Source: Oculina patagonica (Eukaryota). From it: a stretch of DNA of 64,000 nt. Shown here piece by piece: positions 21,911 to 43,089 of the stretch (position 1 is the stretch's first letter; every line of letters starts with the position of its first letter). The notes beneath the pieces are model-generated. The model was given only the letters and a program-made list of their open reading frames with translations. It was not told the DNA's origin and did no database searches. A program made the position numbers and the translations under genes. The stretch is from contig NC_135760.1 in assembly GCF_052425735.1 (NCBI RefSeq), forward strand, positions 13,392,001-13,456,000, written 5' to 3'.

Positions 21911-22671
21911 CATAAGGTGCGGAACTAATGAGGCAAGACGTGGTAAGTCTATGAATCGAGTGATAAGAGAAAGCAGAGGGCGGGACTCCAGGTGGTGGAA
22001 ACCGGGAGAATGGGAAACTTTACTATGCCACTTTTAACATGAGAAAACGTACGAAACAAGAAACACTAAAGAAGGGATGGAGACAGCAGTAAATTGCTAA
22101 AAGGTACGGGAAGCGGGAAGTTTAGTAACTCTCGCTATCCCTCCCCTACAAATTTTAACATTATCCATTGGCCTGATTTTTGTCAGTTTTGGCGCGTAAA
22201 AACGGATGTCTTTGTGGAAGAACTGAGCAGTTTTATTTGTTCTTGTGAAGGGTCACTATCTCTGTCATTTCACTGTTATCTGTTTAAATGCGCAGTTGCA
22301 CAGTCATGAGCTTTAACTTTTCTTAACTGCCACTAGGGTCCACTTCGTCTTTTATGAGGTGCGACCGCGCGAGACTGGGGCGACAACTAGGCAGTCTCCA
22401 GAAATGCACAAACCAAGGGGGGGGGGGGGGGGAAGAAACGAGGTCTGGGACCGAGTAGCGATGCTCTCACAAATCCTCACAACTTGCAAAGCGATCAATT
22501 CACGATGTAGTCAGCGGTTTTTGGACGATGATGCAACAGGCAATCTTTTCCCGCGAAATGGAAGCTGCTATGTCGTGGAATCACTTATTATAAAGGGGTT
22601 CAATTCTCTTAACTAAAAATCTAAAAGCAGCGTGTTTAAATCCGAAAATTTCGTCATCGTCGTGTAGTTTT

Positions 22672-22968
22672 AGTAGTATAGTACTTGGGGGTACGAAATC
22701 ATTTTTTAAAAAATAATTTCATCTCCCCAAGTACATACTACTTTCCAGTGCTGGATTTAAAACTGGATCCAAAACTGGATTCAAAAAATGGAATCAAAAC
22801 TTCTTATACTCTTTTTCAAAATTTTAGATACAGTGCGTTTAAACAAGCCTTGATATCATAACTGAAATATCAATCTGGAAAAACAAGCAAAGCCGAGTTT
22901 TATGATGTTTTTGAAATTTATTTCAAAATCTCTTATACTCTTTTTTAAAAATTCAGTGCGTTTAAAAT
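22672..22968 (+). repeat. Polinton left terminal inverted repeat
   Basis: By eye it is identical to the reverse complement of the right end for ~210 bp (to ~22882), then similar with substitutions and indels to ~22968. Confidence 0.93.
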
Positions 22969-23250
22969 CAACTCTTTTATTCCTGCTTGCCTTTTCATAT
23001 GCAAAAATCAGATTTGGTTCCCACTGTTATCATATTATTAATAATTAAATACTTCTTATCCAAGGTCATAAGAAAATTCAAAAAGCATTTTCTATTTTGG
23101 CAACTATATATAGCAACACAATAATATTTACTTTTTGATTTTTTCAGCCAATCAGAGCTTTCATTTTTTTGTCCAAAATTGTTTCTTAAATGTATAATTT
23201 TTCCGAATTGGTTTCAAAGTTGGTTGGGTTTTAGAAGCAGTTATTTCACC

Positions 23251-23625
23251 ATGGTTTACACACAAGCGCAATTGGAAGAGAAAATAATACATGCAACCGA
23301 GGTGATATCAGAGTCTTATCAGATATGTTTGGAGCTGTATCAGACACCAAAAGTTGATATTAATATGAAGCTTGATGAATTTAAACAGAATTTATCTACA
23401 ATGGATTTGGATACTGTAGAGGAGGGATTTGAGAAGGGTTTGTCGCTTTTCACAGAGATAAAGAAGATGATTTTTGAGGAACGGAAACGTCGCCGTTATG
23501 TACGACAGCTAAAGAATAAAAAGAGACTAAACAATATCAAGATGGATGTTAAATTGGTACGCAAATCCAGAAGACTACAAGAGGCTGAAAGCGTGATTAT
23601 TCACAATGGATTATCAGCAAACTGA
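23251..23625 (+). CDS. Polinton hypothetical protein (helical, basic C-terminus); likely ATG at 23251
   Basis: Open frame MVYTQAQLEEK... with a basic NLS-like stretch (ERKRRR). No recognisable family. Confidence 0.5.
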   Translation: MVYTQAQLEEKIIHATEVISESYQICLELYQTPKVDINMKLDEFKQNLSTMDLDTVEEGFEKGLSLFTEIKKMIFEERKRRRYVRQLKNKKRLNNIKMDVKLVRKSRRLQEAESVIIHNGLSAN

Positions 23626-23631
23626 ACTTGA

Positions 23632-23847
23632 TTAAATTTTATTATGGCCGTAAGCAAAACTGGTTTTACCATTTTCATGTATGTATCTTTTATCATCAAA
23701 GCAAGACAATGACACTTTATTAAGCTTGTAGCTATAAAGTTGATGTTTGTTGCTCCGAATGGTTTTCATCATATGATGCATATGTTTATTATTAAAGAGT
23801 GTCTCTCGGTAGTCTTGAAAATTGATGTCTTTTTTAATGATATTTTT
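23632..23847 (-). pseudogene. Stub of a second, divergent pPolB C-terminus (71 codons plus stop)
   Basis: Translates KNIIKKDINFQDYRETLFNNKHMHHMMKTIRSNKHQLYSYKLNKVSLSCFDDKRYIHENGKTSFAYGHNKI*, which is 47/71 identical without gaps to the end of the adjacent PolB (hand alignment). Confidence 0.9.
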
Positions 23848-23870
23848 TTATATGTTTTTTTATAGTGCGT

Positions 23871-26800
23871 TTAAAATAAACTTTGAATTTTATAATGTCC
23901 ATAAGAGTAACTATTGATCCCATTATCAAGTATGTACCGTTTATCATCAAAACAACTGAGTGATATTTTATTAATCTCATAGCTTCCGAGTTGATGATTT
24001 TGACTCCTGATGGTTTTCATTTTATGGTGCATTTGCTTGTTGTCAAATAATGTTTGCTTATAGTTTTCATGTGTGATATCTTTTTTGATGACGGATTTCT
24101 TGATTCCTTTGGCAGTCTTTCCAACTTGTAAATTGTTTTTAATATAAGAATACATTTTTGATCGCAGACCAATGAATTCTAAAATAGGAATAAAAGAAGC
24201 TTCATCTTTGAATTTACCAATGACTTTCTTGTTTGTTTTATTATAAAATGGAGAGCTTTCAGGGTAGTCACTATTGTCAAATTTTTCCTTATCATTCCAA
24301 AAGTCTTTGTAAACATCATCAGCCTCAATTTCATAGGTTAAGCTATCAGTATCTGTAAATAAAAGCCTAGCTTTATCCCCATATTTTTCTTTGATATAAT
24401 TGTAATGAAAATCATACATAAGTGTTTTGCTAAGATCTAGGATACACATCCCAATATATGCCGGCCTATTGAGAGTGAGTGTTTCTTTGATCTTATGAAC
24501 AGCTACGAGGTCTTCATTAAATATCTTACTGCTGACATAAGTTGGTTTACTTGTAAGCTTTAATAGCTTCTTTGTATTAGTTACCAATCTGACATCTACT
24601 CGCTTTCTTAAATTTTCCATGGTTTTACCGTATACTGAATTATTCATCAATTTAAAAAAGTCTTTTTCAAAAGTGTTTTTAGAATTTTTGCGTTTATCAG
24701 TATTAAAATCAATGTATTGCTTTAACCATGGAGATTGATTAAATTCTAACACTCGATGGACTTTGGTTAATTTTAAACCGAGATCTAAATACAACTGAAG
24801 ATTCTTGTAATGTAACACATATTTTTCCTTATTATTCAATGTAGGCATCAGTTTATGTACTAAACCTGTTGATATATTGTATTTTTCAGCAATGTTTTTG
24901 CAATAATCCGATAGCATATTTTGAGTTACTTTTACTTTTTCTGATCCAAGAGGATAGTCGTTATGGAGATCATGTAACTTTTTGGGGTATTCTAAGTCAA
25001 CTTCTAAAATCAAACCCTTCTTACTGTTTTCTGTATACTTAGATAAGTTTGTATTATTAATCTGCTTTTCTGTCAACCATTTAAAACCACCAGTTGGTAA
25101 AAATTGACTCATAGCCCATCCATAAAGGTTGTTTGCATCAAGATACATAATATACTTTGAGGGCACCTTTTCATTATATTCTTTCATGTATTTATTGTTT
25201 GCTTTACTATATCGATTGGCTATATAACTAATACCTCCTCTCATACCCTTTTCAATGAATTGATACATGTCAATGTCAGTCATCAACTCTAATTTAATGT
25301 CAGTCATCTTTAGCATAGCATCCCAGCTTAAACCTGGGGATGTGAAATAATGACATGGATCAAGCTTATAATACTTAAAACAGGTCTTACGGAAGCTTTC
25401 AAAAACATCTGCTAATAATAAGACATCTGATTTTAAATATAAATCATGATACTCACCCATATTTTTGATCTTAAACGTTTTCCACACATTTTTTGCATGC
25501 TTATAGTCTTTGTCTGATATATGCTCATTATTTAATATACTGTAAAATTCTTCTTTAGTTGGTAGCTCTGTATTAAATTTATCAAAGCTATCCATATAGT
25601 CATAGGGATAAACTCCTTTCCTCGACATAAGATTAAGCTTATCACCCTCAAACATTTTAGAAGTATATATTAATTTTTCTCTCGGCAGATTACTTACTAA
25701 TTTATCAAGACTGGAACTCATAAACTGGAAACTATCAAGGAATGTTAAATGATTACCGAGCATGAATGCCATATACTTTTCTATGTTGTTGGGTATAGCA
25801 TTGATATTCATCTCTTTCATTTCACCTTTTTTATTTTTATATGTATGGTTCTTAACAATACTTCCGATCTCTTGCATTATAAAGTGACTGTCATATCCTC
25901 TTAGATTATGAAAAATGACTGGTATTTTAATTTTATCGGGCTCTATTCTTAATTTAAGATTGCATTCTTGATGAGCTGATCCTCGATATTTACCAGTTAT
26001 ATGGCAATGGTCTCTAACTCGTATATCTTCGTCAGTATATTGTTTGTCACAAATATGGCATCCGTTTGCTTTTTGAAATGCATCTTCATCATCTTGAGTC
26101 ATTTTTAATGGTTTTTTAAAGAATTTTCGCATAGTCGTTTTGCAATATTTAACTTCATCTAGCATAGCTTCCATGAATTTATAAACAGCTTTTTCACCTC
26201 GGTATATCTGAACAGGCTTTGAATATTTATCATCATAGCAACAAACAACCTTATAACCATATCCACAATCTTTGTGTTTTTGATAAGCTTCAGTAAATGA
26301 TTTATCATCATTAGGCTTACAACCAGATATCTTTTCTGTTATTGCTTCAAAATCAGCATATATGGTGAATGGAACTTGCTGTTGCTTATGAAAGTTATTG
26401 AATTTCAGTATACTATTATCCTTATCAGGCATCTTTACTGCTTGAGTCCCATTGACTTGAATGCAATTATCTTTGTGATCGTTTAATACTCTCTCAGAAC
26501 TAAAGCACTGGAGACAATACATGCAAAAGAACTTCTTTTCTTTGTGTTTTGTTTTGTTATACATGAATTTATTGAAATCTTTTATTAGAATATAATGCTT
26601 GTTTTCATTTTCAGTTATCAATAATAAATTCATCTGATTGTCATACTTTTCTTTTGATATAAAAATGGGATATGGTTTCTTGTCTTCGTAACCGAAAACA
26701 TTTATATTGATTTCATTCTGTTTCTCGATTTTGTTGAACTGCTTTATATTCACAGGAAAATTAATTCCATCATAATTTAACTTTTCAACATATGCTTTAT

Positions 26801-27627
26801 CCGATTTTTTGATCCTTTGAGGGTATTTATCTTGGGGATTAAGATGCCTGATATGGCACCAACGGAAGCATTCATTATCCTCATTTTTCATGTTAATCAA
26901 TCCTTTTGCGCTGTTTCTAAGTTCTTGAGGAAGCCGAATATATGAGGAGCCTTTCATTGGTTCATATTTCACTATATTAAGATAGTGACCATCAACAGAT
27001 TGCAATAGCCCAGCCCGAGCCTTCTGATATCCACTGAGCTACGAAATTTAAGATTTGTTGTTTTGATTTTTGTAGCGATTCAGCAATCTCCATACTATTG
27101 ATGATTGTTTGAGGTTTGCTGTTGAAATAGGCTGTTTTATAAATAATGTCATCACCAGACATCTTTGAAAATGTTACCTTCAGCGTTTCAACAAATTTGA
27201 TTCCCTTTATAGCTATAAGGGTTTTTATGATATGATATTCAACAGCTTTCCTTGTGTTTTGTAGTTGTAATAACGGGTCTTTGTTATGTTTTATACCAAT
27301 TTCAAAAGACTTTGTGTAGCCTTTCATAGCTTTAGCAACTTCCTCTATCTTAGTCCTTGGTAATGGAATTGGGTTTTGTTTTATAGTCCTAGGCATTGGT
27401 ATAGGCTTGTAATCATCCCTAAATTCAGGAGGTGGTTGAATGATATTTTCCTCATAATCCTGCACCATCTGTTTTACACTCTTACGAGGAGTTGGGATTG
27501 GTGGCCTAGGTTTGTAAACTCTTGGTTGGTTTGCTTTTAGTGATAATACTAGTTTTATGAGTTCAGTTTTAGATAATTTTTCTAGATCTAATTCATTCAT
27601 ATTAATATATGAGATATTTTTTTCCAT
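23871..27627 (-). CDS. polB: Protein-primed family B DNA polymerase, split into ORFs 26992-27627 and 23871-27005 by a 1-nt insertion at ~27003; ~1251 aa if repaired
   Basis: Exonuclease motifs YADFE, FHNLRGYD and YLKSDV; polymerase motifs YLDANNLYG, KLMNNSVYGK and FTDTDS. An EndoVII-like insert CHIC...VRDHCHITGKYRGSAHQECN and a C2H2 finger CMYC...HKDNC are present. Removing base 27003 gives a continuous EGSGWAIQSVDGHYLN. Confidence 0.95.
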
Positions 27628-27793
27628 TTTTGTGTACTATATAGAATTACCATTTCTTTAAGTCCTTTATAGTAAAAATTATTTTTTAGATTTTTTTGGT
27701 GCGTTTAAAAGATAACCAGAAATAAATATATTTTTGGTCACCTAAGGCAACAGATAACAGCAATTCATATATACTGTGCTATACAATATATAA

Positions 27794-28033
27794 TTATATA
27801 ATATTGCTTTCTATGTTTTCAGCTGGTATTATGTTGTATTGGTCTTCATTAGCCTTGATAACAGTATTTTTAATATGCTTCTTGGTCCTTATGTGAGAGT
27901 GCTTTCCAGCGAGCGTGTAGTCATGTTGACATGCATCACATATCCATGATTTGTTTAGCATATATCTGGTCTTGCTTTCCTTAATAGCGTTTTGTCTGTC
28001 TTCTTCATTATCGTATTTTTTATTTCGTCCCAT
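27794..28033 (-). CDS. Small C2H2-type zinc-finger protein
   Basis: CDACQHDYTLAGKHSHIRTKKH (C-x2-C...H-x5-H); AT-rich leader. Confidence 0.7.
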   Translation of the reverse strand: MGRNKKYDNEEDRQNAIKESKTRYMLNKSWICDACQHDYTLAGKHSHIRTKKHIKNTVIKANEDQYNIIPAENIESNII

Positions 28034-28153
28034 TATATATACTATATATTATTTCCTTAAGTGTTTTTTATAGTGCGTTTAAAACTGGAAATATCAAAAT
28101 TAACGTACTATAAAAAGTGACTTAAAGAATTGTTATATAGTATAATTATATAG

Positions 28154-28468
28154 ATGAACAAACAACTGGTTGAAATGGAAACAATCGAGATGCTGGATGA
28201 TATATGGTTTATCCATAGCTTATATCCAAGTTGGGGTGCTAATGAGTCTGGTGATATTCTTTATATTGCCAAGAGGAAAATTTTGAAACCAAAAATGACT
28301 GATTCAGGAATGGTATTTAACGTTAGCAATGGGCATGGTTTTAGGCTATATCAAGTCGATAAATTCGTTTTTGAGGTTTTTAATGATATTGAATCAGTTG
28401 ATGGTGATATCATTCATATAGACGGTGATATAACCAATAACAGCTTTCTTAATTTGAAGCTTGTATAA
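28154..28468 (+). CDS. NUMOD4/HNH homing-endonuclease-like protein, possibly degenerate
   Basis: N-terminal HSLYPSWGANESGDI..KILK and C-terminal VDKFVFEVF...IIHIDGDITNNSFLNLKLV match the HNH_3 pattern VHRxVxxxF...DHIDGxxxNNxxxNL. Confidence 0.65.
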   Translation: MNKQLVEMETIEMLDDIWFIHSLYPSWGANESGDILYIAKRKILKPKMTDSGMVFNVSNGHGFRLYQVDKFVFEVFNDIESVDGDIIHIDGDITNNSFLNLKLV

Positions 28469-28576
28469 TATTAATAATTTGGTTTGCTTACACAGCTTTT
28501 ATGGTATATAAATATATTCTTTATATTTATGCCTTGTTGTAGTAGCATAAAAATAAATCTTACATATTAGTATATA

Positions 28577-28726
28577 ATGTCTTGTAATTCACAAATTCAC
28601 GATGAATTAAAGAATATTGAAGAGTTTTCATGTCGTTATTGTGATCAACTATTAGTGGAAGGCGATATTGCCTTGAATCATCTTTATATAAATATATTTA
28701 TATATGAGATGTTTTGTGATACATAG
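28577..28726 (+). pseudogene. Truncated paralog of the N-terminus of the downstream VLTF3-like gene
   Basis: MSCNSQIHDELKNIEEFSCRYCDQLLVEGD aligns with MRCFVIHSDLKIMGEGSCIFCNELLYTGD of ORF 28704, then degenerates and stops at 28724-28726. Confidence 0.7.
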
Positions 28727-29342
28727 CGATTTAAAAATAATGGGTGAGGGTTCTTGTATTTTTTGCAATGAGTTATTATATACAGGCGATAAAGTTGTTG
28801 ATCATTGCTGTGATAAACCTGATATTTTGGAAGATGCATATATGAAAGTATGCCAAAATTGTGGGACTCAGAATTATAAATATGTTAGCGAGTATTTTGA
28901 TTTTTACGAGAACAGACACAAGATATGGCGTAAAAGCATCTATCATCGTAAATACCATATTGAGAATGTTTTAAACGATTTATGTATTAAAAATGGAGTT
29001 CAATTGTCTCATAATCATCGCGATAAGATTTACAAAGTGTTTCATGAGATCGATACTATTCTTCCATCTATAAATAAAAGAAGAAAGAGGATGATCTCAA
29101 CGAAATATATTATAAGACAGTTGTTTAAAATGCTCGGTATACCATACAATTTTATCTGTGTTACTGAATCAAAAAAAACGCGAGCTTTTAATGATCGGTA
29201 TTGGGGTAATATTTTAGAATTGAAAAATCGTCCCAGATCGTGCGGCTTATTCAGTAAATTTATTATCATATTTTACCATATACCGATCTATTATTGGGCC
29301 GTTATCGCATATGTAGTCGTCAATGCTTTTCATTGTATTTAG
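28704..29342 (+). CDS. Cys-rich protein resembling poxvirus/NCLDV late transcription factor VLTF3 (A2L); its C-terminal end probably reads through into the neighbouring gene
   Basis: Zn-ribbon CCDKP...VCQNCG; YHRKYHIENVL (cf. YxRxxHFxExL); RKRMISTKYIIRQLFKMLG...ESKKTRAFNDRYWGNI (cf. RKNFLxYxYVLxKL...KSxxKxxxxDxIWxxI). Confidence 0.55.
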   Translation: MRCFVIHSDLKIMGEGSCIFCNELLYTGDKVVDHCCDKPDILEDAYMKVCQNCGTQNYKYVSEYFDFYENRHKIWRKSIYHRKYHIENVLNDLCIKNGVQLSHNHRDKIYKVFHEIDTILPSINKRRKRMISTKYIIRQLFKMLGIPYNFICVTESKKTRAFNDRYWGNILELKNRPRSCGLFSKFIIIFYHIPIYYWAVIAYVVVNAFHCI

Positions 29343-29746
29343 GATGCTAGACGGATTATAATTGCCACCCGTTCTCATAGTAACTTTAATAGAGTGTCAA
29401 AAGGTGTATGCATATAGGTTTGGGATGCATATATGGAGTTATGAATTTTTAGATCGAGATTTTTATGATCATCAAAGCCTTGAATTAATAACGAAATTGT
29501 AGTTATTGTAACCAAAGCAATACCACCTGTAGCTATAGAGGAGGCAAGGAAGCCGCTTGATGCAAAGAGGATAGACAATGAATTCCCTAATAACTTCCAT
29601 TTTTTGAAACGTTTAACAGCCTGCTTATAAGCCCAACATTTTCGATGATATGTTTGATAATAAGCTTTCAATTCTATAATTTGGTCTTCAGTAAGTTCGC
29701 TTGATATATGGTTCCATGTAAATATGCATTTTCGATGTTTAGTCAT
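29247..29746 (-). CDS. Two-TM membrane protein with a frameshift near 29395-29410; the C-terminus SIKVTMRTGG...KYDNKFTE* is in another frame
   Basis: Hydrophobic hairpin LLGNSLSILFASSG...GGIALVTITTISLLIQG. A stop-free continuation in a shifted frame ends with a stop at 29247-29249. Confidence 0.6.
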
Positions 29747-29778
29747 ATATATTAGTTATATATGATTTTTTTGCTTTA

Positions 29779-29895
29779 TTATTTTGTCATTTTAGCATTG
29801 CGCTTGTTCTTTATTGTGTAATACAGCTTCCTTATGTTTTGAATTAATCTCTCAATAGAATCAATAATATTGCTAACCAATTTCACTGTTTTCAT
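29779..29895 (-). CDS. Possible 38-aa basic amphipathic micro-ORF (MKTVKLVSNIIDSIERLIQNIRKLYY...)
   Basis: Fills the gap between two co-oriented genes and has an AT-rich TATATG start context. Confidence 0.35.
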   Translation of the reverse strand: MKTVKLVSNIIDSIERLIQNIRKLYYTIKNKRNAKMTK

Positions 29896-29932
29896 ATAAT
29901 TTAATTAGATAAAATCGTTGGAGTTAGATAAT

Positions 29933-31978
29933 TTATTGGAAGAATACAGCCTTTGTTTTATCTAAAAATTGGATTTTATGATACTCTCTACCATTTATCG
30001 GATATGCAGTTTTACTAAAAGCGATTCTTTGTACATAGTAATCTGAACTGATTTTAATGTTGGATGCATTGATATTAAACCTAGACAATGTTTGATCAAT
30101 ACTCATAGCATTATTGCAAACAGCGATTCTAAATTGATTTCCTATTTTAGTATACCAGAGATTCAAATATTTATCAAAATATGTTCCTCTTATTTGCTCT
30201 GTATATGAATCTAGATCATAATCGATGAATAGCTTATTATGCTCCACTTTAACCCACGGAAAACTAAAACTATCACCCTCGATAAATTCAATTTTAATCC
30301 TTTTATTATCACTGGGCTTATAGTCATATTTAAATGCCATATATATAGTCCAGTCATTGGATTCAGTGATATTTTCATTTAAATTAATTTCGAAACCACT
30401 CATAAAGCCGTTTTTTGGATCAAAATCTTCTAACAATTTTGTGGGATTAAAGACAAGATTGCCATTTAATCCAGACACTACAGCACCGTTACTATCTGAC
30501 ATGATGAATTCAGATGGATCCGTTAGATCATAAAAATACTCGAAAATTTTATGGTAATAGCTGATGTTTCTTTTCTTATCCATTTTTAATTCAAGATCAG
30601 ACTTCAAATTGTCCCGAAAATTTTTTAACTGTTCAAAATTAACAGCTTGGTCATTAGTAGTAGCTGGTTTAATACCATAAATAGCCTTTGTTTTCATATC
30701 AATCGATGCATTGAAAGCTATTCTATCATTTTCAACATAATATAGCTGATCGTATATCCTAGGATCAACGTTACTCTGATAACCTTTTATTCCATAAATC
30801 ACGATATATGTTTGTAATTTTGGGACATATGCGTTCCCTGATTTCATCTTTAAAACGATATCAACATAGAGATAATTATTAGGATGTTGCTGATATTTAT
30901 TAATTTGTGCTATTGTTCGACTATATCCATCATAAACTCGCGTAGTTGATTTGTCGATGTTGTCGATTGATGATACAATATCGATATCTAGACTATCATG
31001 ATCTATTTCAGCTGGAAAAAATAGCTCGAAAACCATTGTGTATCGATTGATTGGTAAACTATATACATTGATACCTAATCTGCTTGAGTAGTATCCTTTA
31101 TTGTTGTCAAGTACCAGCTTACTGTCTACAACTTTCGTATTGATCTTATGGTATGAATTCGGATGATCGATTAAACTGCCTAACTTTATATCATCTTCCT
31201 CGCTTAATTGATTGATACTATCGGCCATTATATGGGCAAACGTGTTTTCTTGGCCAACGGAAGTTATATGACTGCTATCAACATGATCAAGCATATATTT
31301 TTTGTTTACAGCGTCTGTATCATTGGTTGGGATTTTTAGATGGGTTATATTATACCCACCCATATGGAGATTTGCCTGCATCATGTTACTACCGTGAATA
31401 TCAAGCTTGCTTAGAATTTTTTGAGTCAAAACGCGTCCTACGACCTTCTTTAAAAAACTGTTATCAACGTACGATTTGTCTGCTTTGTTTTGAAGGCTTT
31501 GAGCTAAGACACCTCCTGATTTCTTCGTTAAATATGTATTATCAGCGTACGATTTGTCAGCCTTAGTAGCAAGTTTGGTATCAATTTCAGTCCTTACTTT
31601 GTTATCCTCAACACTAACATAGCCTACGTTTGGTACAGATCGATCGTTATATAAAGTTGGATAATACACTTCGGTATTTTGCAATGAAAGGCCGGCACAA
31701 TCAAACACTGTTTCATTTCTGTTCTTTTTAAGGAAGAATTGGTTAAGATATCGTTTATTTACGGCCGTCTCGAGATCCCTTGAATAATTTTCAATTGAAT
31801 CATCGATCGCAACGTCATCAGGCGTTTTTAGCCCTATTACTCTCTTTTTGTTCAAATTGAAATTACCTTCAGGCGTAACATCAAAGCCGACTCCTGGGTC
31901 ACCCTTTTCACCTCGAGGCCCTTTAATTGGCGTAATATTAGTGTTATTTGATTGTAATAAACCGTTTGAGTAACTCAT
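29933..31978 (-). CDS. Putative fiber/spike (receptor-binding) protein
   Basis: Collagen-like GPRGEKGDPG; three neck-like repeats (TAVNKRY, DAVNKKY, QAVNFEQ); a 26-aa tandem KADKSY repeat; beta-rich C-terminal domains. Confidence 0.65.
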   Translation of the reverse strand: MSYSNGLLQSNNTNITPIKGPRGEKGDPGVGFDVTPEGNFNLNKKRVIGLKTPDDVAIDDSIENYSRDLETAVNKRYLNQFFLKKNRNETVFDCAGLSLQNTEVYYPTLYNDRSVPNVGYVSVEDNKVRTEIDTKLATKADKSYADNTYLTKKSGGVLAQSLQNKADKSYVDNSFLKKVVGRVLTQKILSKLDIHGSNMMQANLHMGGYNITHLKIPTNDTDAVNKKYMLDHVDSSHITSVGQENTFAHIMADSINQLSEEDDIKLGSLIDHPNSYHKINTKVVDSKLVLDNNKGYYSSRLGINVYSLPINRYTMVFELFFPAEIDHDSLDIDIVSSIDNIDKSTTRVYDGYSRTIAQINKYQQHPNNYLYVDIVLKMKSGNAYVPKLQTYIVIYGIKGYQSNVDPRIYDQLYYVENDRIAFNASIDMKTKAIYGIKPATTNDQAVNFEQLKNFRDNLKSDLELKMDKKRNISYYHKIFEYFYDLTDPSEFIMSDSNGAVVSGLNGNLVFNPTKLLEDFDPKNGFMSGFEINLNENITESNDWTIYMAFKYDYKPSDNKRIKIEFIEGDSFSFPWVKVEHNKLFIDYDLDSYTEQIRGTYFDKYLNLWYTKIGNQFRIAVCNNAMSIDQTLSRFNINASNIKISSDYYVQRIAFSKTAYPINGREYHKIQFLDKTKAVFFQ

Positions 31979-32002
31979 ATTATATCAATCAGTTATATTA
32001 TA

Positions 32003-32644: not shown

Positions 32645-32780
32645 TATATTATATGGGTATATTATTTTCAGTTCAACAAGGTGTTCAACACGGTGTACAT
32701 CAAGGTGTTAAACGCTATGTTAAATGTTGATTTTTATATTCAATTTTCATTTTTTATGTAACGTAATAATATAAAATAAA

Positions 32781-33791: not shown

Positions 33792-33813
33792 TTTATGTAA
33801 CTGTATTATATAT

Positions 33814-34572: not shown

Positions 34573-34591
34573 TATAACATAATAGTATATA

Positions 34592-34993
34592 ATGAAACCA
34601 TATGAATTCAAGAGGTTTTACCATCCAAAATTTGGTAAATTTGTATATAAGCACAAAGGGTCAGGGATTATCGTTGATAACATTTTCAAACCGATGAAGA
34701 GTGTTATGTCGTCTGTTGTTAAAAAAATTGTCAAGCCCTTAGGTAAGAAGGCAATAAAATCAGGTATTTCTCATGCAGGTGATAAACTGGGTAAAAGGGC
34801 ATCAGAAAAAGCCGGAGACCTTATAATGGAAAGGCTAAGGAATATGAGGAAGGGAAATGCTGGGCAAAAGTCACTATCCCCAATCTTACAGAAAGTAAAT
34901 GCCTCACCTGTCAGACACCAACAGAAAAATGAAAGTACTGATATGATCATTAATAGATTAATATCAGGATCAGGTGTAAAAAGAAGGCGTTGA
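34592..34993 (+). CDS. Basic amphipathic virion protein, adenovirus pVI-like (membrane-lytic candidate)
   Basis: KGS/G followed by the amphipathic helix IIVDNIFKPMKSVMSSVVKKIVKPLGKKAI; C-terminal ISGS/GVKRRR; lies directly upstream of the MCP. Confidence 0.55.
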   Translation: MKPYEFKRFYHPKFGKFVYKHKGSGIIVDNIFKPMKSVMSSVVKKIVKPLGKKAIKSGISHAGDKLGKRASEKAGDLIMERLRNMRKGNAGQKSLSPILQKVNASPVRHQQKNESTDMIINRLISGSGVKRRR

Positions 34994-35058
34994 GTAAAAT
35001 GAATAAAATGATTAAAAAAATTGGTACATAATTGCAAAATTATGTAACATAATAATAT

Positions 35059-36324
35059 ATGTCTTTTAGAACAAGCGAATACTTACAGAGATATGAGTTG
35101 GTTCGATTTCAACTCGATGATGTAATTCGAGTCCCAGCTAACGGTCAGCACCAACTTAAAAACGGCTATAAGTTCACGATTAACGATAGAAGTTCATTCT
35201 ACGATTGGTATAATGCGTATTTCGAGGTGCAATTTCAGGTGCAAATGTTAGCTGATGGAGCAACCACGGGGGCGAATCGTATCACAGTTATTAATGGAGC
35301 ACATTCATTGATTGCCCACATGATGATTAAATCAGCAGGAAAAATCGTTTATGATACCGATAATCTCCATAAAGTTACTTTCGTTAAGAATCTCCTCGAA
35401 TATAGTGACGATTTTAGTCGTTCAGTAGCAAAAAATAGTCTTTGGTATCTAGATACCGACCATAGGATAGCAAATGCTAATCAGAATGCAGGGTTTGAGG
35501 CTAGGCGACTTTTGACGACAGGTCTCAATGATGTCAATGTTGTTATACCTCTAAATCGTTACAGTTTCTTTGAAGAGCTGGAAGGTCGAATGTTACTCCC
35601 AATGCAACTCCAATTCAATATACAGTTACAGAATGACGCCGAATTACTTAAAAAGGCCGATGATGTAGCTGATGGACGAGTGGTCCTTAATAGATTCCTT
35701 CTATGGGTCCCAAAATTGACTCCAAAGGACAGCCTATATGATAAGTTTGTTAGTTCCTTCTTGGTAAAGAACACTTGGACGTATATGCGCGAAATGTATG
35801 AGGTTTCCGCACCAACGAATAGCAGTGGATTCTTCCAGATCTCATCCAGTATTGATAATGTTAAGGCTATCTTTGTATATCTACAACGAGCTAAATCAAA
35901 CAATGCAGATGAAAATCCCTATGAATTTGATACCTTCAATATCAATCTTGACCGTGGGAATGGTAGTTATTTGACAACATGCCGATTGGAATACGGCAAC
36001 GGAGTGTTTTATCCTGAGACCGAATATGATAGTGAGTCCAAAGTTAGGATCTTCAATGATTTGATGTCTTATGGTATGAGAAAGAATGATTACAACAGCG
36101 GTACACAACTCAACTTGGCAAATTACAACTCTCTCTATCCTATTATCTTTTTTGATTTATCATATCAAGCAGAGCGAGTAACTAGAGACCCAAAGCAGTT
36201 GATCTTCAGATATAAACTAAACGCTAATAGTGCGGGAGATAGTCCTTTCAACGTCCATGCCATCGTTCTTTATGATGAGACAATCGTCATTGACAAGGTG
36301 GGGAATGAGCTGGTTATTGTATAA
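35059..36324 (+). CDS. Major capsid protein (double jelly-roll, Polinton PY/hexon-like)
   Basis: 421 aa, beta-rich; motifs VKNLLEYSDDF, IPLNRYSFF, LWVPKL, FYPETEY and YPIIFFDLS; located between penton and protease. Confidence 0.85.
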   Translation: MSFRTSEYLQRYELVRFQLDDVIRVPANGQHQLKNGYKFTINDRSSFYDWYNAYFEVQFQVQMLADGATTGANRITVINGAHSLIAHMMIKSAGKIVYDTDNLHKVTFVKNLLEYSDDFSRSVAKNSLWYLDTDHRIANANQNAGFEARRLLTTGLNDVNVVIPLNRYSFFEELEGRMLLPMQLQFNIQLQNDAELLKKADDVADGRVVLNRFLLWVPKLTPKDSLYDKFVSSFLVKNTWTYMREMYEVSAPTNSSGFFQISSSIDNVKAIFVYLQRAKSNNADENPYEFDTFNINLDRGNGSYLTTCRLEYGNGVFYPETEYDSESKVRIFNDLMSYGMRKNDYNSGTQLNLANYNSLYPIIFFDLSYQAERVTRDPKQLIFRYKLNANSAGDSPFNVHAIVLYDETIVIDKVGNELVIV

Positions 36325-36415
36325 ATCAATCAATTGAATATTATGTATAAACCATTCTATTTTGTATACGTTTTATAAACAAGAAATTATATAACATATA
36401 ATATATATACAAGTA

Positions 36416-36922
36416 ATGACAACTTATCACTCTCATAAAGTGAATCTGTCAGAAGGACAGCGAAGGAAGCTTTTGACTGCTTATAGAAATAAAAGTGAGA
36501 TCACTATTCGCTTAAGCAATTCAGATATGACTGGCAATGACAGTTTAATGCTAACTCAACGACAAATCAATAAATTGAATAAGGCTAAGAAGTTAGGTGT
36601 TGGATCTTATTTAAACATCTCAAAGGCACAAATTCGAAAGGTCATTAGGGTCGGTCATGGGGCACCGCGGATTGGTTTTCCAATGATTGGAATAAGTGCT
36701 ATGAAAACGAAAACAAGATCAAGAAGGTCAACAACTAACAAATCAACAACTGATAACACTTCAAAGAAGGATGGTGGAAATATTAGACTACCAAGTAAGA
36801 AAGATGTATTAGCTTACACACCGCCACCATTCATTGGTTCTTGGGATGAATATGATAAATTTCTTAGAACAGGTGGATTGGTGCTTCCAAAAAAAAAGAT
36901 CTTAAAACCGAAAAGAAAGTAA
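36416..36922 (+). CDS. Basic putative core (DNA-condensing) protein
   Basis: Pattern VNLSEGQRRKL...TIRL...LMLTQRQINKL..A...G...ISKAQI seen in Polinton structural modules; K/R-rich, with GxG motifs. Confidence 0.6.
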   Translation: MTTYHSHKVNLSEGQRRKLLTAYRNKSEITIRLSNSDMTGNDSLMLTQRQINKLNKAKKLGVGSYLNISKAQIRKVIRVGHGAPRIGFPMIGISAMKTKTRSRRSTTNKSTTDNTSKKDGGNIRLPSKKDVLAYTPPPFIGSWDEYDKFLRTGGLVLPKKKILKPKRK

Positions 36923-36951
36923 GAAAGCCAACATTCCATAAGAATATACCA

Positions 36952-37383
36952 ATGAGTAATTTTGATTTAATAAACTGGTGTTTATATTTGAATATACCGA
37001 TAAAAAATGTACTAATGAGAGACGAGACTGTGCCACATAATCACAAATTAGGAATATTCATTTACAATCTCCAACCGTCATATCTGAGTGGTAGTCATTG
37101 GGTTGCAACTTATGTAAAAGATAAGGTAATCAATTATTTTGATAGTTTTGGTATGCCTTCATTTCAAAAAATAGTCGATCACGCAAAAAAGAAGAATTTA
37201 ACATTGCTACATCAAAACAATCAGATACAGAATATAAATACAACCACATGCGGATACTTCTGTTTATACTTTTTGAATGAGATGAACCATGGGAATACGT
37301 ATTCTAATTTGTTGGAAGTGTTTGACATATATGACACAATGAAGAATGAGAAATTCATTCAACATTATTTCAGAAATATATAA
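36952..37383 (+). CDS. Adenain/Ulp1-like cysteine maturation protease; the frame is open from 36868 and may be reached by -1 frameshift
   Basis: Catalytic motifs GSHWVA, YFDSFG and QIQ...TCGYFCLYFL. Confidence 0.92.
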   Translation: MSNFDLINWCLYLNIPIKNVLMRDETVPHNHKLGIFIYNLQPSYLSGSHWVATYVKDKVINYFDSFGMPSFQKIVDHAKKKNLTLLHQNNQIQNINTTTCGYFCLYFLNEMNHGNTYSNLLEVFDIYDTMKNEKFIQHYFRNI

Positions 37384-37397
37384 CTTATATATATATA

Positions 37398-37850
37398 ATG
37401 GTTAAATCGTATTGTGTACGTGAAAAAATAAAAACTAATTCAGTTCCTAATTCTGAAAAATATATGAGAACAAAAAACAATCGTTTAATACTCAAATCGA
37501 AATGCGTTTCTTGTGGTATTACTAAAACCCGTTTTGTTAGTGCCCAAAAAAAGAAAAAAGGGCGTGGAGTAGGTGAAACGATTAACAAAAAGGTCGGCGA
37601 AAAGATTCCAGGGTTTCAACAGGCTCAAGACTTAGCATCGGCTATCATGGCAGTTACCGGAGGTGATAAAGATCTATTTAAAAAATATTGGCGCGGTGAC
37701 TTTGCTAAAGGTATATTTAATAAAAAAAGCGGAATTCAGACATCTAATTTTTGGAAGCCTGCTGGTGCATATACAAATGAAAAATTTAATCCATCATGTA
37801 ATTACACAGAATATAAAAACGGCAAATGGGTTAATCATTATTGTGATTAA
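37398..37850 (+). CDS. Zn-ribbon (DUF5679-like) basic protein with a unique C-terminal region
   Basis: YCVREK...TKNNR...KSKCVSCGITKTRFV followed by KKGRG. Confidence 0.6.
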   Translation: MVKSYCVREKIKTNSVPNSEKYMRTKNNRLILKSKCVSCGITKTRFVSAQKKKKGRGVGETINKKVGEKIPGFQQAQDLASAIMAVTGGDKDLFKKYWRGDFAKGIFNKKSGIQTSNFWKPAGAYTNEKFNPSCNYTEYKNGKWVNHYCD

Positions 37851-37869
37851 TATCTAACATATAATATAT

Positions 37870-38482
37870 ATGTGCCTGTCATACTGCGTTTCATGTAATA
37901 AAAAAACAAATTCAATCAATACTAAAAAAGTAAAAGCAAAGAATGGCCGACTTATGGAAAAATCAATTTGCTCAATCTGTAAAAACAAAAAGAGTAAATT
38001 CATCAAAGGTGGGGCTCTTGCACGTTTAAAGCCCTTCTCTGTTGTTGTTCTTTGTCTCTCCTTTGGGTGGGGGCGGAAAGGAAGGTATCGATATCCATAA
38101 AGCTATTTTAAAAGTAGCACCAAAAAAGGGTTTTGTAATGCCTGGTCATCGTTATACAGGTCCTGGTAATCCTTTAGAGAAACAGGTAAAGTGGGATCAA
38201 AAAACAGGTAAAATACTGGAGATATATGAAAAACCAACAGGAAAAACGGACGCCGTGAGCATGCAACATGACGTGGATTACTCAGTATGTGCAAACAAAC
38301 CATCAAAAAATCAGGTTAAATGCAAAAACGAAGCTGATAAAAAGATGGTAAAAGCCCTTGATGCTATCCCATGGAAAGACAGACAATGGGGTCATGCTAT
38401 TGCAAGGAACACTATTGCTACCAAGGCTAAAGTAGGTATGGGTGTAAAACAAAAGAAGACAAAAAACGGAAAACGGCGTTGA
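37870..38482 (+). CDS. Zn-ribbon plus parvovirus VP1u-type phospholipase A2 virion protein, interrupted by a 76-nt insert/intron at 38009-38084
   Basis: YCVSC...KNGR...CSICKNKKSKF; PLA2 calcium loop PGHRYTGPGN and catalytic QHDVDY...EAD. Removing 38009-38084 gives in-frame FIKGIDIHKA. Confidence 0.8.
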
Positions 38483-38533
38483 GTAAAAATGATTGGTCTC
38501 AACAATTAGCCGATGAGTTACATAAACCAATCA
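38461..38533 (+). promoter_or_regulatory. Predicted -1 programmed ribosomal frameshift signal (A_AAA_AAC plus H-type pseudoknot)
   Basis: In-phase heptamer at 38461-38467. Stem 1 is GTTGAG 38478-83 / CTCAAC 38498-503, extendable by CGGC 38474-77 / GCCG 38509-12. Stem 2 is TGATTGGT 38490-97 / ACCAATCA 38526-33. Confidence 0.7.
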
Positions 38534-39429
38534 GACGAAAATTTAAAACTAGAAGAGTAATATCAAATGGAATTGACGACATATGGTCTGCTGATTTAGT
38601 TTTTATGGATAAACTTTCAAAATGGAATAAAGGTTATAAATATCTATTGACTATAATTGACGTATTCAGTAAATTCGCTTGGGCTATTCAATTGAAAGAT
38701 AAGAAAGGTGCATCAATAACTAACGCTTTCAACAATATTGTCATTAATGACAAGCGTAAACCTGAATATCTCTGGGTCGATAAGGGATCTGAATTTTATA
38801 ACAAAACATTCAAGGAATGGCTAAAGCAAAATGATATTAACATGTATTCTACTTTTAATGAAGGTAAAGCTGTTGTTATTGAGAGATTTAATAGAACTTT
38901 GAAAAATAAAATGTACAAACAGTTTACTATTCAAGGTAATACACAGTATCTTGAAATGCTACCAAAAATAGTAAAAGAATATAATAATACAAAACATAGC
39001 TCTATCAAAATGACACCCATAGAAGCTTCAAATAAAAAGAATGAAGGAACTGTTTACTTTAACCTATACGGTGATATGAAAACATCAAAACAGAAACCGA
39101 AATTCAAAATAGGTGACAAGATCCGAATATCTAAGTATAAACGAATTGTTTTCGATAAGGGTTATACACCGAATTGGAGTGAAGAAATGTTCGTAATTAC
39201 TAAGATCCAACATACTAATCCCATTACATACAAATTGAAAGATCTCAATAATGAAGACATACAAGGAAGCTTTTATGAACCTGAATTATTAAAAGCAAAA
39301 CAGGATGTATTCAGAATTGATAAAGTGATCCGTAGAGATTATAAGAAAAAACAAGCTTTAGTTAAGTGGAAAGGATACAGTGATGACTTCAACAGTTGGA
39401 TTCCAATCAAGGATTTGAAAGATATATAA
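38479..39429 (+). CDS. Retroviral-like (rve) DDE integrase with C-terminal chromodomain; no AUG before the first catalytic Asp
   Basis: ELHKP, WSADL, IDVFSKFAW, VDKGSEF, IERFNRTLK and YNNTKHSSIKMTP; chromodomain LVKWKGYSDDFNSWIP. Confidence 0.95.
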   Translation: MSKNDWSQQLADELHKPIRRKFKTRRVISNGIDDIWSADLVFMDKLSKWNKGYKYLLTIIDVFSKFAWAIQLKDKKGASITNAFNNIVINDKRKPEYLWVDKGSEFYNKTFKEWLKQNDINMYSTFNEGKAVVIERFNRTLKNKMYKQFTIQGNTQYLEMLPKIVKEYNNTKHSSIKMTPIEASNKKNEGTVYFNLYGDMKTSKQKPKFKIGDKIRISKYKRIVFDKGYTPNWSEEMFVITKIQHTNPITYKLKDLNNEDIQGSFYEPELLKAKQDVFRIDKVIRRDYKKKQALVKWKGYSDDFNSWIPIKDLKDI

Positions 39430-39548
39430 TCAATTTTTAAGAGTGCCTTAAAATCAATTATCAAGTATTACACATGCAAATAAAAATATTAAGTATAATA
39501 TTTTTATAAATCAGTATTTGATTACAAAAAATATTTTAGGACATACAT

Positions 39549-39908
39549 TCATTTTAAAAAAACATTGAATTTATCAACAACTAATTTTTCATCTAATTGA
39601 TTTTCATTATAAAAAAAGGTATCAATATTTATAATACTACAGCCGTTATCAAAAAGCATTTCGACAATATCTAAATTAAACAAATTTGATATTACGTAAT
39701 TAGTATCTTTATAATTATCAAAATATGCTTCAATATAATCGGCCCATGGGTTAGCCCCGCCATCCATAACAATTACACTGTTTGGCTGATTAAATACCAT
39801 GTGCTTGAAATTAAATTCATCTTCTAAGATTTTAGCAATTATTTTAATATCATTCGATCTATTATTTTTATCCGAGGTTAAACCGATTATAAATCTTTTA
39901 TTATTCAT
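39549..39908 (-). CDS. Degenerate deoxynucleoside-monophosphate-kinase-like protein
   Basis: IIGLTS...IAKILEDEFNFKHMVFNQP...YVISNLF...GCSIINI parallels IIGLxGxxGSGKDT.A..L...GF....FA.P...VI.DvRF...GG.II.I, but the P-loop GK is missing. Confidence 0.4.
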   Translation of the reverse strand: MNNKRFIIGLTSDKNNRSNDIKIIAKILEDEFNFKHMVFNQPNSVIVMDGGANPWADYIEAYFDNYKDTNYVISNLFNLDIVEMLFDNGCSIINIDTFFYNENQLDEKLVVDKFNVFLK

Positions 39909-40013
39909 ATATATATTACAAAGAGATTTTATTTTTATATGGATTTATGTGTTTTTCCCTTAAACGCACTATAAAAAACACATATAAAAAAAAAAAATGT
40001 GTCATAATATTAT

Positions 40014-40355
40014 ATGAGTAAAGCAGATATAAAAAACAACCAATTATCTAATTTAATCAATGAAATAACATCAAATCATGATACAAACAGTTGCTCAAAA
40101 CATGTAATATCTATACTAAAACTTGTAATAGCACTCAATAAAAGAGCTCAATTAAATGAAAAAATATTATTCCATTTAAAATCCATCTCAAATTTAAATC
40201 CAATAAAAAACATCCATAAGCTACAAGAATTGAGTAATCATTTAGATTCTCAAGTTAAAAAAATTGATATTTTAAAATCACAAATCATCAATTCAAACAT
40301 TAAAAAAATAGAAATCATTATAAAAGATGATAATATAAATTTATCTGAATGTTAA
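40014..40355 (+). CDS. Polinton hypothetical protein (helical/coiled-coil)
   Basis: Open 113-aa frame with a TATTATATG start context; no recognisable motif. Confidence 0.45.
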   Translation: MSKADIKNNQLSNLINEITSNHDTNSCSKHVISILKLVIALNKRAQLNEKILFHLKSISNLNPIKNIHKLQELSNHLDSQVKKIDILKSQIINSNIKKIEIIIKDDNINLSEC

Positions 40356-40409
40356 ATGACCAATCCACTATAAAAGAGATATAAAAAATAATGTATAATA
40401 AATATTATA

Positions 40410-40589
40410 ATGGCATCAAATTACATCAAAGAAAAATTCGTTGAGATGATGAATATCATAGAAAAACATTGCATTAAAGACAATACACTTTTCTTACAAT
40501 TAAGTGAAAAGGAACAATCAAATATATTAGTTAACATTTGTACTGATCTCGGTATAATATCAAATATGATTCTACATAAAAACATGTAA
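40410..40589 (+). CDS. Polinton hypothetical 59-aa protein (MASNYIKEKF...)
   Basis: ATG at 40410 after TATTATA, stop at 40587-40589; below the ORF-track cutoff. Confidence 0.4.
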   Translation: MASNYIKEKFVEMMNIIEKHCIKDNTLFLQLSEKEQSNILVNICTDLGIISNMILHKNM

Positions 40590-40645
40590 AAAAATCTGAT
40601 AAAAATACAAAAATATTATATTGAAAATGTAATATAAGACGTTCA

Positions 40646-40931
40646 TTTTAAACGCACTAAGATGCAAGATTTTTAAAAAAGAGTATAAGAGATTTTGAAA
40701 TAAAACTCGGCTTCGCTTGGTTTTCCAGATTGATATTTCAGTTATGATATCAAGGCTTGTTTAAACGCACTGTATCTAAAATTTTGAAAAAGAGTATAAG
40801 AAGTTTTGATTCCATTTTTTGAATCCAGTTTTGGATCCAGTTTTAAATCCAGCACTGGAAAGTAGTATGTACTTGGGGAGATGAAATTATTTTTTAAAAA
40901 ATGATTTCGTACCCCCAAGTACTATACTACT
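40646..40931 (-). repeat. Polinton right terminal inverted repeat
   Basis: Reverse complement of the left end; ends ACTATACTACT followed by TSD AGTTTT. Confidence 0.93.
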
Positions 40932-43089
40932 AGTTTTAAGAACGCAGAATTTTGTGATGCCGTGCTACTTTTCATTGCTGAAATGCAAATGTTTGACATG
41001 TTTGTACCACGATTTTCAACTGGCCCACATGGGGATTGTAAATGAAGTAAAACAAAGAAAGACCAAGTCAACAAACAACCTCAAACAATAGAGCAAGAAC
41101 AATAGCTCCGACCAGCGCGGGAATATTCGATCGCCACGTTTTCATTACCATTCCCGTGATGGTTTTATTTCATAACAAACACCACATATTGACACCAAGA
41201 ACCTTTTCGGAGAAATTTTCGCTGCTTTAAAGTCAAAACTTAGAAAGTCTTTTTTATTACTACATATATAAAAAAAATCGAACTCTCTCACTGGTCCCAT
41301 ATTTTTGTTTTGGCAAGTTCACAAAGAAAGGAGCTGCTCATGCGCCTAAGAGACATCCGCTGACTACCGCCCCGATGATTGCTTTGCAAGTTGTGAGAGC
41401 ATCGCTCAGATTTCATATAAGAGAATGTATGGGAAGTTGCTTCCCCCCCCCCCCTGGCACAAACAACACTGCTATTTGTTGACCTTTGTCTGTTTTCCTC
41501 ACAACTGCTCCCCACTTACTTAGGAATCATACAAGATTAACAGTTCGTAGAGAAGATAAGTTTTTGTGTTATCAGATAAGATTCAAATTGTGGTAGAGAG
41601 ATTCAGGTAAAAATTTCTTTAATTCATGCAAGTCTCGCTGCGAACCAAAGATAACAGATTCGGCAGGCATAATCTGTGCATATTCATGAGAAGGCCAGAG
41701 CACACAAGCTAATGTAGCTCTTCAAGGCATAGTACAGGACGGTGTTGAGTACACTATAGTGCTTCAACTTCCTTTTTAATAAACCTTTGGTGTCTTAGAA
41801 GCACGCACGTCGCATTCCTGACCAACATATGGAGAAATAATATTGGAAAGGACTCTTAGAAAGTCTAGAAAAATAACAGCAACAGTTTCTGTCCTTTTTT
41901 CTGGCTGAGTTTCAATGCTTTTATCATAGTGTCAGTCAGCCTGAAATTTTTAATTATAACGCGATTGGATATGACAAGCGTCCTGACGGTGCGCACATAA
42001 AGTTTCTGCCTCAATAGAAATAGCTGCTGATAAATTACGTGCTTTACAAGCATATGAACACCTGGCTTGTATATTATCCCTCTCTGATGTCAACTGCCTA
42101 ACTTCTTTGCTGATATGCATGTATGTCTTATCATAATTGTCGGAATGATTTGACCATGTTTTAAGTGTAGTCAGTACTAGTGTAATACACTTGTGACCAG
42201 TTCTTTGGTTTTCGCCGGTAACCTATATACTGATCACAAGAGTAAAGTAACTTGATTTCAGCAGGTTTCTGAAATATAATTCTACCTGTATGGCCATTAT
42301 ACGATGCTTTTGCTGGTTTGTGTTACCGTTTTTCACGCGATGCAGGCCTCTTACAAAAGTGTAACTTTACGACTTATCTTCGGGGACTTGGAGGGCGATA
42401 ACCGGGCTAGGTGAAGTTAAAACGAAGAAAACCCACGGCACCTTACAAAAGTTTCCATATCAGGAGAAAGAGCCCCGCTTTTCAGCAGTTCTTTAATAGA
42501 AACGTTTGTGGTGTCTATTTCGTGTAGTTTTATAGAAACGTTTGTGGTGTCTATTTCGTGAAGTTTTAACTTGCCTTTTGCCGTGTTTAATGGCCCCTGA
42601 CGCGAGGATGTTTTGACTTCTAATGAATTTATAGACACACAAATGAAACTAAAAACGAAGTGGCTTTTAATGTCTTGACATTTCATAGACTAGTATGAGA
42701 GACTGATATAAATTAATAAAGTGCAATTTCAATATCTCCACTGAGTAGCCACTGAAATGGTTTTATAAAATTCTAAATTATGGATCTGTCAAACTGCGCG
42801 TCAGGTTTCAGTTTTTAATAATTTGCAAGACAGTTCATTTGTCGGTCCTGAATAGAAGGTAAAATTAAAACCTTACGACCACTGACAAAACGCCAGTATT
42901 TTCTTGCTTGTCAGTCAATACATTTACATTTGCATTTATCGCATTAAAAACAGGTGAAGACTTTTGTTTTGTTGAGACCGTATTGCATTGGGCGGCAGTT
43001 CGAGGCAGTGCCAGTTCCTCTGAAGAAAAGTCAAGCCTTGACTCAAACAAGGAGCTCCGCTTCTATTCAAAAGGAAAACTCTCGGCATC

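Follow-up and report, generated by a model that had tools for sequence, protein, structure and literature searches.

A damaged copy of a high-copy coral Polinton family that likely makes a PLA2X-integrase fusion by programmed -1 ribosomal frameshifting

The window analyzed here, 64,000 nucleotides of the Oculina patagonica genome (NCBI RefSeq assembly GCF_052425735.1, contig NC_135760.1, positions 13,392,001 to 13,456,000), contains a Polinton/adintovirus with a double-jelly-roll capsid gene at 22672-40931 (18,260 bp). Sequence comparison indicates that this element is a damaged copy of a high-copy coral Polinton family that likely makes a fusion of the PLA2X protein and the integrase by programmed -1 ribosomal frameshifting; in the frameshift itself, taken on its own, our confidence is high. 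We know of no animal Polinton whose life cycle has been followed, and the frameshift signal described below would be a concrete answer to how Polinton integrases are expressed and brought into a newly entered cell.

The integrase consists of an rve domain with a C-terminal chromodomain and has no usable AUG ahead of its conserved core. Its frame (38431-39429, plus strand) is open from 38431 and overlaps the end of the PLA2X gene (37870-38482, plus strand; DUF5679 plus a parvovirus-type PLA2 domain), relative to which it lies in -1. The conserved aspartate of the WxxD motif is located at 38593, and the first AUG follows at 38605, four codons after the aspartate and inside strand beta-1 in a structure model. 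This residue is D in all 93 homologues in which the motif could be placed (27 of 120 were not placed). Within the overlap, a slippery heptamer A_AAA_AAC lies in phase with PLA2X at 38461-38467 (plus strand), and a predicted stimulator stem begins 6 nt after it (38474-38512, plus strand; 38474-38483 pairs with 38498-38512). A second helix, found by eye between 38490-38497 and 38526-38533, could make the structure a candidate pseudoknot.

Other copies in the coral genome carry the same arrangement. Every third of 97 hits to the major capsid protein (MCP) was sampled, leaving out the window's own and one at a contig end, which gave 33 copies; two copies with the closest terminal inverted repeat (TIR) and ten with a helicase-type replicase were added (45 in all). 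A_AAA_AAC is found in phase, 129-132 nt before the aspartate, in 35 of 35 copies, with integrase types only about 75% identical in DNA, and an in-frame AUG before the aspartate is missing in 31 of 35. The relation of PLA2X to integrase was -1 in 22 of the 33 copies, +1 in 8, fused in 2 and unresolved in 1.

Distant relatives were represented by 82 metagenome and viral loci, about 41-79% identical; scans of viral contigs gave only 1 and 3 loci. Eleven loci lacked the N-terminus and 2 lay too close to a contig end. The 69 classed loci comprised 30 AUG-less -1 overlaps, 15 long in-frame open reading frames (ORFs), 17 other AUG-less loci and 7 with their own AUG, and collapsed at 85% identity into 56 lineages; two loci of the -1 class, L155 and L158, resemble internal sequencing shifts and were kept in the counts. 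Among the AUG-less -1 overlap lineages 15 of 23 have A_AAA_AAC in phase, compared with one of the 15 in-frame fusions (Fisher p = 5e-4); in the two wrong phases it occurs in 3/23 and 1/23 of the overlap lineages (p = 2e-6). These p-values overstate independence because the lineages share ancestry. Any standard heptamer was found in 19 of 23 overlap lineages and 2 of 15 fusions. A stem starting 5-7 nt after the heptamer outperforms at least 98% of same-gene control positions in 13 of the 15 overlap lineages with the in-phase heptamer, its 3' arm ending 21-78 nt downstream at a distance that varies by lineage. In one clade of six sequences, 63 of 63 cells pair and 3 of 11 pairs change on both sides, with widely different loop lengths. 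The parts of a frameshift signal are found together: an AUG-less -1 ORF, a conserved in-phase X_XXY_YYZ heptamer and a stem 5-9 nt downstream, the last being weaker in the window. That natural in-frame fusions occur shows a joined PLA2X-integrase protein to be tolerated. On viral contig L083 (2740-4251) protease and integrase form a single 503-aa ORF, a third means of linking the integrase to a virion protein.

Several observations weigh against frameshifting, some of which belong to the alternatives considered below. When aligned by phmmer with foamy-virus integrase, a later aspartate and not that of WxxD is matched; the residue after the methionine is Q in 62 homologues and D in 26, so the later aspartate is unlikely to be the conserved one. 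In the window the stem itself is modest (z -1.05 over the whole region), and lysine-rich tails are A-rich. Among the relatives, 13 of 56 lineages have neither an AUG nor a clean -1 overlap and 5 have their own AUG; A_AAA_AAC is missing in 8 of the 23 overlap lineages, and any standard heptamer in 4. Under a lenient statistic, the ranges of stem energy in fused loci (-15 to -6 kcal/mol) and in -1 loci (-24 to -5 kcal/mol) overlap. The six-sequence covariation set was picked after the stem had been seen, and 8 of 500 shuffles reach its score. Finally, the 8 copies in +1 and the 2 fused copies arise mostly from length changes in an A run upstream of the heptamer; in these copies the junction may be broken, the assembly may err at homopolymers, or slippage may contribute.

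Such copy-to-copy variation of the A run would fit transcriptional slippage as the source of the fusion, or an integrase supplied only by rare in-frame copies, at least 22 of 120 database homologues being in-frame PLA2-integrase fusions. We regard this explanation as improbable. The window junction type lacks the variable upstream run and any run of more than six A, yet is -1 in 5 of 5 other copies; runs of at least 8 A occur in only 1 of the 16 A_AAA_AAC junctions of the relatives; and slippage by RNA polymerase would need no stem at a fixed spacing of 5-7 nt. The integrase might instead be made alone and not as a fusion, with ribosomes reinitiating or initiating leakily at a codon other than AUG. 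In the window type an in-frame UUG overlaps the PLA2X stop (TTG over TGA), and many database homologues are called from there, 4-7 residues before the conserved tryptophan, a position that is leucine in fused relatives. In other integrase types of the same genome, though, the TTG is absent and the distance of the heptamer unchanged, and near-cognate starts (TTG, CTG or GTG) lie in the interval in only 2 of the relatives' 16 junctions. As non-AUG initiation also leaves the phase bias and the stem unexplained, we give it little credence. An intron joining PLA2X to integrase in frame is very improbable: the one public gene model that joins the two by skipping the junction (P0089) loses the conserved W..LA.ELH.P segment, and neither in the window nor in any of the 16 relatives do the 12 bases before an AG in the interval include more than 7 pyrimidines.

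Frameshifting of this kind has a familiar counterpart. In gag-pol of retroviruses and long-terminal-repeat retrotransposons, -1 frameshifting depends on an X_XXY_YYZ heptamer, a 5-9 nt spacer and a downstream stem, and the enzyme is made as a minor extension of the structural protein, from which the viral protease frees it. The coral element shares the heptamer, the spacer, the predicted stem and, as proposed here, a minor enzyme extension of a virion protein; it differs from gag-pol in being dsDNA, in having a PLA2 core protein and an adenain, and in lacking Gag and reverse transcriptase. Most ribosomes would stop and yield PLA2X, likely a virion protein, and a minority would slip back one base and yield the PLA2X-integrase fusion. 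Starrett et al. (2021, PMC8502044, in the text available) propose that PLA2X is part of the virion, so the fusion may be packaged into the particle at low copy. The element's adenain would cut it at a conserved GxG motif before the heptamer, and the integrase, delivered together with the genome, would insert it and leave a 6-bp duplication. Of 30 overlap loci, 29 have the GxG motif ahead of the junction, as have 11 of 15 fusions. Whether such a Gag-Pol-like strategy, a packaged low-level fusion freed by adenain, is widespread in Polintons, the coral pool combining one capsid-integrase module with three replicases that have their own origins, is in our estimate evenly balanced. If frameshifting is true, many Polinton integrases would have been given a wrong start in annotation or judged broken though intact, which would affect counts of active elements.

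We found no literature report of PLA2X-integrase frameshifting in a search that left supplements and most subscription papers outside. In the text available, no PLA2X-integrase frameshift is described in PMC12567637 or PMC5803895, and no integrase recoding in PMC8502044. Buck et al. (2024, PMC11071296) proposed KnotInFrame-based -1 frameshifts in adintoviruses for penton C-termini and hexon-adenain fusions; in the main-text passages available the proposal does not concern PLA2X-integrase and comes without a conservation test, and the supplementary annotation may bear on this.

The family to which the window copy belongs is large. It comprises at least 99 copies of the MCP gene (99 scored of 366 candidates), 98-100% identical in protein and located on all 14 large contigs, and the integrase motif occurs in 190 places in the genome versus 1 in the control. 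An MCP identical to the window's is filed under Oculina patagonica in the protein database, and sequencing runs labeled as coral metagenome contain the stretch, in keeping with this stony coral as the host. Ends bounded by a target-site duplication (TSD) were placed in 31 of the 45 fetched copies, and within the fetched span in 23 of 35 sampled copies (21 of 35 without the 2 helicase-type copies). The ratio of nonsynonymous to synonymous polymorphism (pN/pS) is 0.103 for penton and 0.105 for MCP, although ranking of the sample by MCP similarity, a point against our interpretation, inflates MCP identity and lowers MCP pN/pS. The ATPase value was set aside, as out-of-register rows had entered its set. 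All seven open-frame tests were passed by 17 of 33 copies. The reading of the window from sequence alone (hereafter the sequence-only reading) had pictured a recent insertion from a young lineage, and the copy number and MCP identity, the 21 of 35 TSD-bounded copies, the pN/pS of about 0.10 and the 17 copies with open frames all support it.

Formation of virions, which the sequence-only reading had thought possible for the lineage, is plausible as a putative property of the family. That the family now spreads only within cells as a transposon, or is dead, its capsid genes being passengers in a recent burst that makes no virions, is possible but doubtful; it would suit the four frameshifted genes of the window copy, the 16 of 33 copies that fail at least one core test and the lack of particle evidence. 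Still, the pN/pS of penton, which was not used in selecting the copies, is 0.10; all 33 copies have a full-length MCP, and 32 of them a full-length penton. This alternative is about the life cycle and is compatible with the frameshift. One 2.9-kb contig covering penton and MCP came from a run guessed to be RNA; it may be DNA and was not used as evidence of expression. Two copies, those whose TIRs most resemble the window's (L079-L082), agree with it in PolB type and integrase but match neither its MCP nor its penton in blastn, and likely carry another capsid module.

Three kinds of replicase occur in the family. In the 33 copies the replicase ORF was an Alpha PolB in 18, a Beta PolB in 10 and an SF1-helicase protein in 2, and 3 copies had no ORF of 800 aa. 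Alpha denotes a strong PF03175 match and Beta the window type with Endonuclease VII, labels that follow the description by Starrett et al. (2021, PMC8502044) and not its reference proteins. The window PolB has catalytic motifs and matches PF03175 weakly (E = 8e-17), with Endonuclease VII, and PLA2 is in the same element; the other class reaches 6e-42. The available text of PMC8502044 has PLA2X mark Alpha-class virion modules and reports Alpha/Beta module swaps; on this scheme the window element is a candidate chimera of a Beta PolB with an Alpha virion module. The window MCP gene is identical over 1263 nt to that of three Alpha copies and one Beta copy, and an MCP gene 99% identical to it occurs together with the PolB-SF1-helicase. 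The replicase classes do not cluster on the MCP tree, which needs 9 changes against a mean of 10.3 after shuffling. We infer that these elements recombine between modules.

The terminal sequence follows the replicase: among placed ends, AGTAGTAATG was found in 13 of 13 Alpha copies, AGTAGTATAG in 7 of 7 Beta copies and ACTACATG in 10 of 10 helicase-type copies. As the termini follow the replicase without exception where they could be placed, each replicase would seem to need its own origin in the TIR, with origin recognition by the replicase. A pool of three replicases with termini that follow them is a natural experiment on origin recognition, and it blurs the replicase-type line between Polintons and polinton-like viruses.

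The helicase protein carries PolB motifs of the NTDG type ahead of the SF1 helicase, motifs A, B and C being present in 76, 82 and 76 of 88 homologues, and GIY-YIG in many of them. It has 14 hits in the genome, 9 of them in open frames of 1371 aa, and 10 of 12 examined copies are TSD-bounded. Five of the 14 hits lie 9-11 kb from a window-type MCP hit and 9 of the 10 added helicase-type copies have no blastn match to the window MCP, which suggests that capsid modules also move between replicases. Fusions of this kind (Tlr1-like pPolB-S1H, PolB with a superfamily 1 helicase) are described, in the text available, in polinton-like viruses, Tlr1 and transpovirons, from protist and algal elements (PMC5499653, PMC11071308, PMC12721341). 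The coral protein is likened to them by its motifs, with PolB motifs A, B and C before the SF1 helicase; the elements that carry it here, in contrast, are young, belong to an animal and combine an adintovirus capsid module with an rve integrase. According to the available text of PMC8502044, full-length S1H replicases are absent from animal data except for degraded coral and jellyfish contigs, against which stand the 9 of 14 open frames and 10 of 12 TSD-bounded copies reported here.

As far as the available texts go, coral Polintons and polymerase swapping are already known (PMC11131425; PMC8502044; Jeong et al., 10.1101/2023.08.22.554363). In polintoviruses of stony corals, Stephens et al. 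(2024, PMC11131425) described large paralogous expansions, a likeness with the family here, with hallmark genes expressed in Stylophora and helicases in some; the main text does not mention Oculina, and the parts available analyze neither integrase translation nor replicase-tracking termini. The nematode Polintons with pPolB1 or pPolB2 are near-identical elements with highly divergent polymerases (Jeong et al., 10.1101/2023.08.22.554363, in the text available). In contrast to the swapping described there, the coral pool has three replicase classes including a PolB-helicase fusion, replicase-specific termini, and capsid genes that are 100% identical in DNA across Alpha and Beta.

The boundaries of the window copy are well defined. 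GC content is 31% in the element versus 37-38% in the flanks. AGTTTT is present at 22666-22671 (left TSD) and 40932-40937 (right TSD), and the outermost 211 bases of both ends are identical, those of the left TIR (22672-22952, plus strand, with the Beta-type terminus) equalling those of the right TIR (40669-40931, minus strand). The insertion interrupts a high-copy non-coding host repeat (~22400-22671 and 40932-~41400). The uninterrupted form of this repeat has a single AGTTTT and 130 genome matches versus 0 control matches, and the 6-bp duplication is therefore genuine. The intact TSD and about 210 bp of identical outer TIR in the sequence-only reading are both borne out. An internal palindrome in the outer TIR (32-nt arms, 88%; 22681-22734 and 40869-40922) is a candidate terminal hairpin or origin element. 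A locus-specific empty site was considered and rejected: a joint skipping the element was found in four of four runs, yet the flanks are the host repeat with its 130 exact copies, so these joints are not specific to the locus. None of the listed contigs in the four runs bridges the occupied left junction, and the terminus is joined to other flanks. As contigs assembled from runs indicate presence and never absence, polymorphism of the insertion is not demonstrated.

The sequence-only reading had also called the element complete, in the sense of intact, and in this it does not hold: four genes are frameshifted. PolB breaks into 211 and 1028 aa near 27.0 kb, at a point where 13 of 13 matching copies are in a different frame. 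Near 38.0 kb PLA2X is split in its 5' part, as it is in 4 of 9 matching copies; its PLA2 part can still be read from an internal AUG (38138) up to and across the heptamer. A 123-aa ORF and the VLTF3-like ORF are shifted near their 3' ends, and 24 of 24 and 20 of 20 matching copies, respectively, differ. Nearly all these indels lie away from long homopolymers; mutation and assembly error are not separable from the assembly alone. As its PolB is split, the window copy is unable to replicate alone, and could move again only with help in trans.

Protein families were assigned with Pfam profiles, with matches in the element to PolB, A32 ATPase, a VLTF3-like protein, adenain, DUF5679, PLA2, rve and chromo; an Rfam scan of the element gave no matches. 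As described in the available text of PMC8502044, adintoviruses share with it PolB, the rve-chromodomain integrase, a packaging ATPase, adenain, hexon, TIRs and, on the label given below, a likely penton. On the minus strand, PolB consists of a main part (23871-26957, 1028 aa, Beta class with an Endonuclease VII insert, exonuclease and polymerase motifs present) and, out of frame with it, a 211-aa 5' part (26992-27627) that is likely the terminal-protein region. Just downstream of PolB, at 23635-23847 (minus strand), sits a second, diverged copy of a PolB 3' end (about the last 71 codons), possibly the scar of an earlier module swap. The minus strand also carries a conserved small ORF of 79 aa (27794-28033; its cluster is found in 26 loci), the shifted 123-aa ORF (29375-29746; 161-163 aa in most copies), a fiber-like protein of 681 aa (29933-31978), tentatively so labeled after a 31-aa PHROG match (E = 2e-4), and the A32/FtsK packaging ATPase (32003-32644; Pox_A32, E = 1e-9).

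On the plus strand lie a 104-aa ORF (28154-28468; weak HNH match, E = 0.022), the VLTF3-like gene with its 3'-end shift (28704-29342), a conserved 336-aa ORF of no family (32781-33791), the likely penton or minor capsid protein (33814-34572, 252 aa), labeled by position and by Atlas look-alikes (0.97) in unnamed viral clusters, and a basic 133-aa ORF (34592-34993) that is likely a core protein. The MCP is the 421-aa ORF at 35059-36324, a predicted double jelly roll (fold pLDDT 73) with iridovirus, PBCV-1 and mavirus capsids as best PDB matches (E = 3e-14 to 7e-12). It is followed by a basic 168-aa ORF (36416-36922), the adenain-type protease (36952-37383, 143 aa, own AUG; Peptidase_C5 E = 0.0013, below cut-off) and a 150-aa DUF5679 ORF (37398-37850), ahead of PLA2X and the integrase. 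The frames of the 168-aa ORF and the protease overlap in the -1 relation (36868-36952), with nine consecutive A in the overlap, and this was considered as a second frameshift site. It is not supported, since the protease starts at an AUG of its own and is not preceded by a stem after the A run (z +0.52). In six copies a fused ORF of 321-327 aa is present here.

In the gene set of the sequence-only reading, PolB, ATPase, MCP, protease and integrase stand, as does the strand layout (PolB and ATPase on minus; penton, MCP and protease on plus); the penton and fiber labels are weak, and a pVI identity of the 133-aa ORF finds no support in Pfam or PHROG matches of the element's proteins. The adenovirus-like gene order it saw holds only loosely, with the fiber-like gene on the opposite strand and the 168-aa ORF between MCP and protease. 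Neither the recoding signal of the integrase nor the exchange of replicases had been noticed in that reading. Adenoviridae have no integrase and carry the fiber on the late strand; the element, having an integrase and a fiber-like gene on the PolB strand, falls outside that family.

The arms are more variable. None of the 33 MCP-selected copies has a blastn match to a 124-aa ORF of no family in the left arm (23251-23625, plus strand), and the accessory ORFs of this arm vary by copy (L045, L051, L082); clusters of 282-370, 191 and 193 aa, for instance, are each confined to 3-4 loci. The variable right arm holds a 119-aa ORF (39549-39908, minus strand) and a 113-aa ORF (40014-40355, plus strand).

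Outside the element, a 4.4-kb fold-back structure at 43858-48274 (~1.1-kb arms, 97% complementarity, no ORF above 118 aa) has a palindrome with 86-nt arms near its centre (46443-46615) and looks like a non-autonomous DNA transposon with a nested miniature inverted-repeat transposable element (MITE). In the left flank, inverted repeats at 1499-1615 and 5158-5274 (117 nt, 85%) and at 13756-14364 (53 nt, 87%) suggest older DNA transposons or MITEs.

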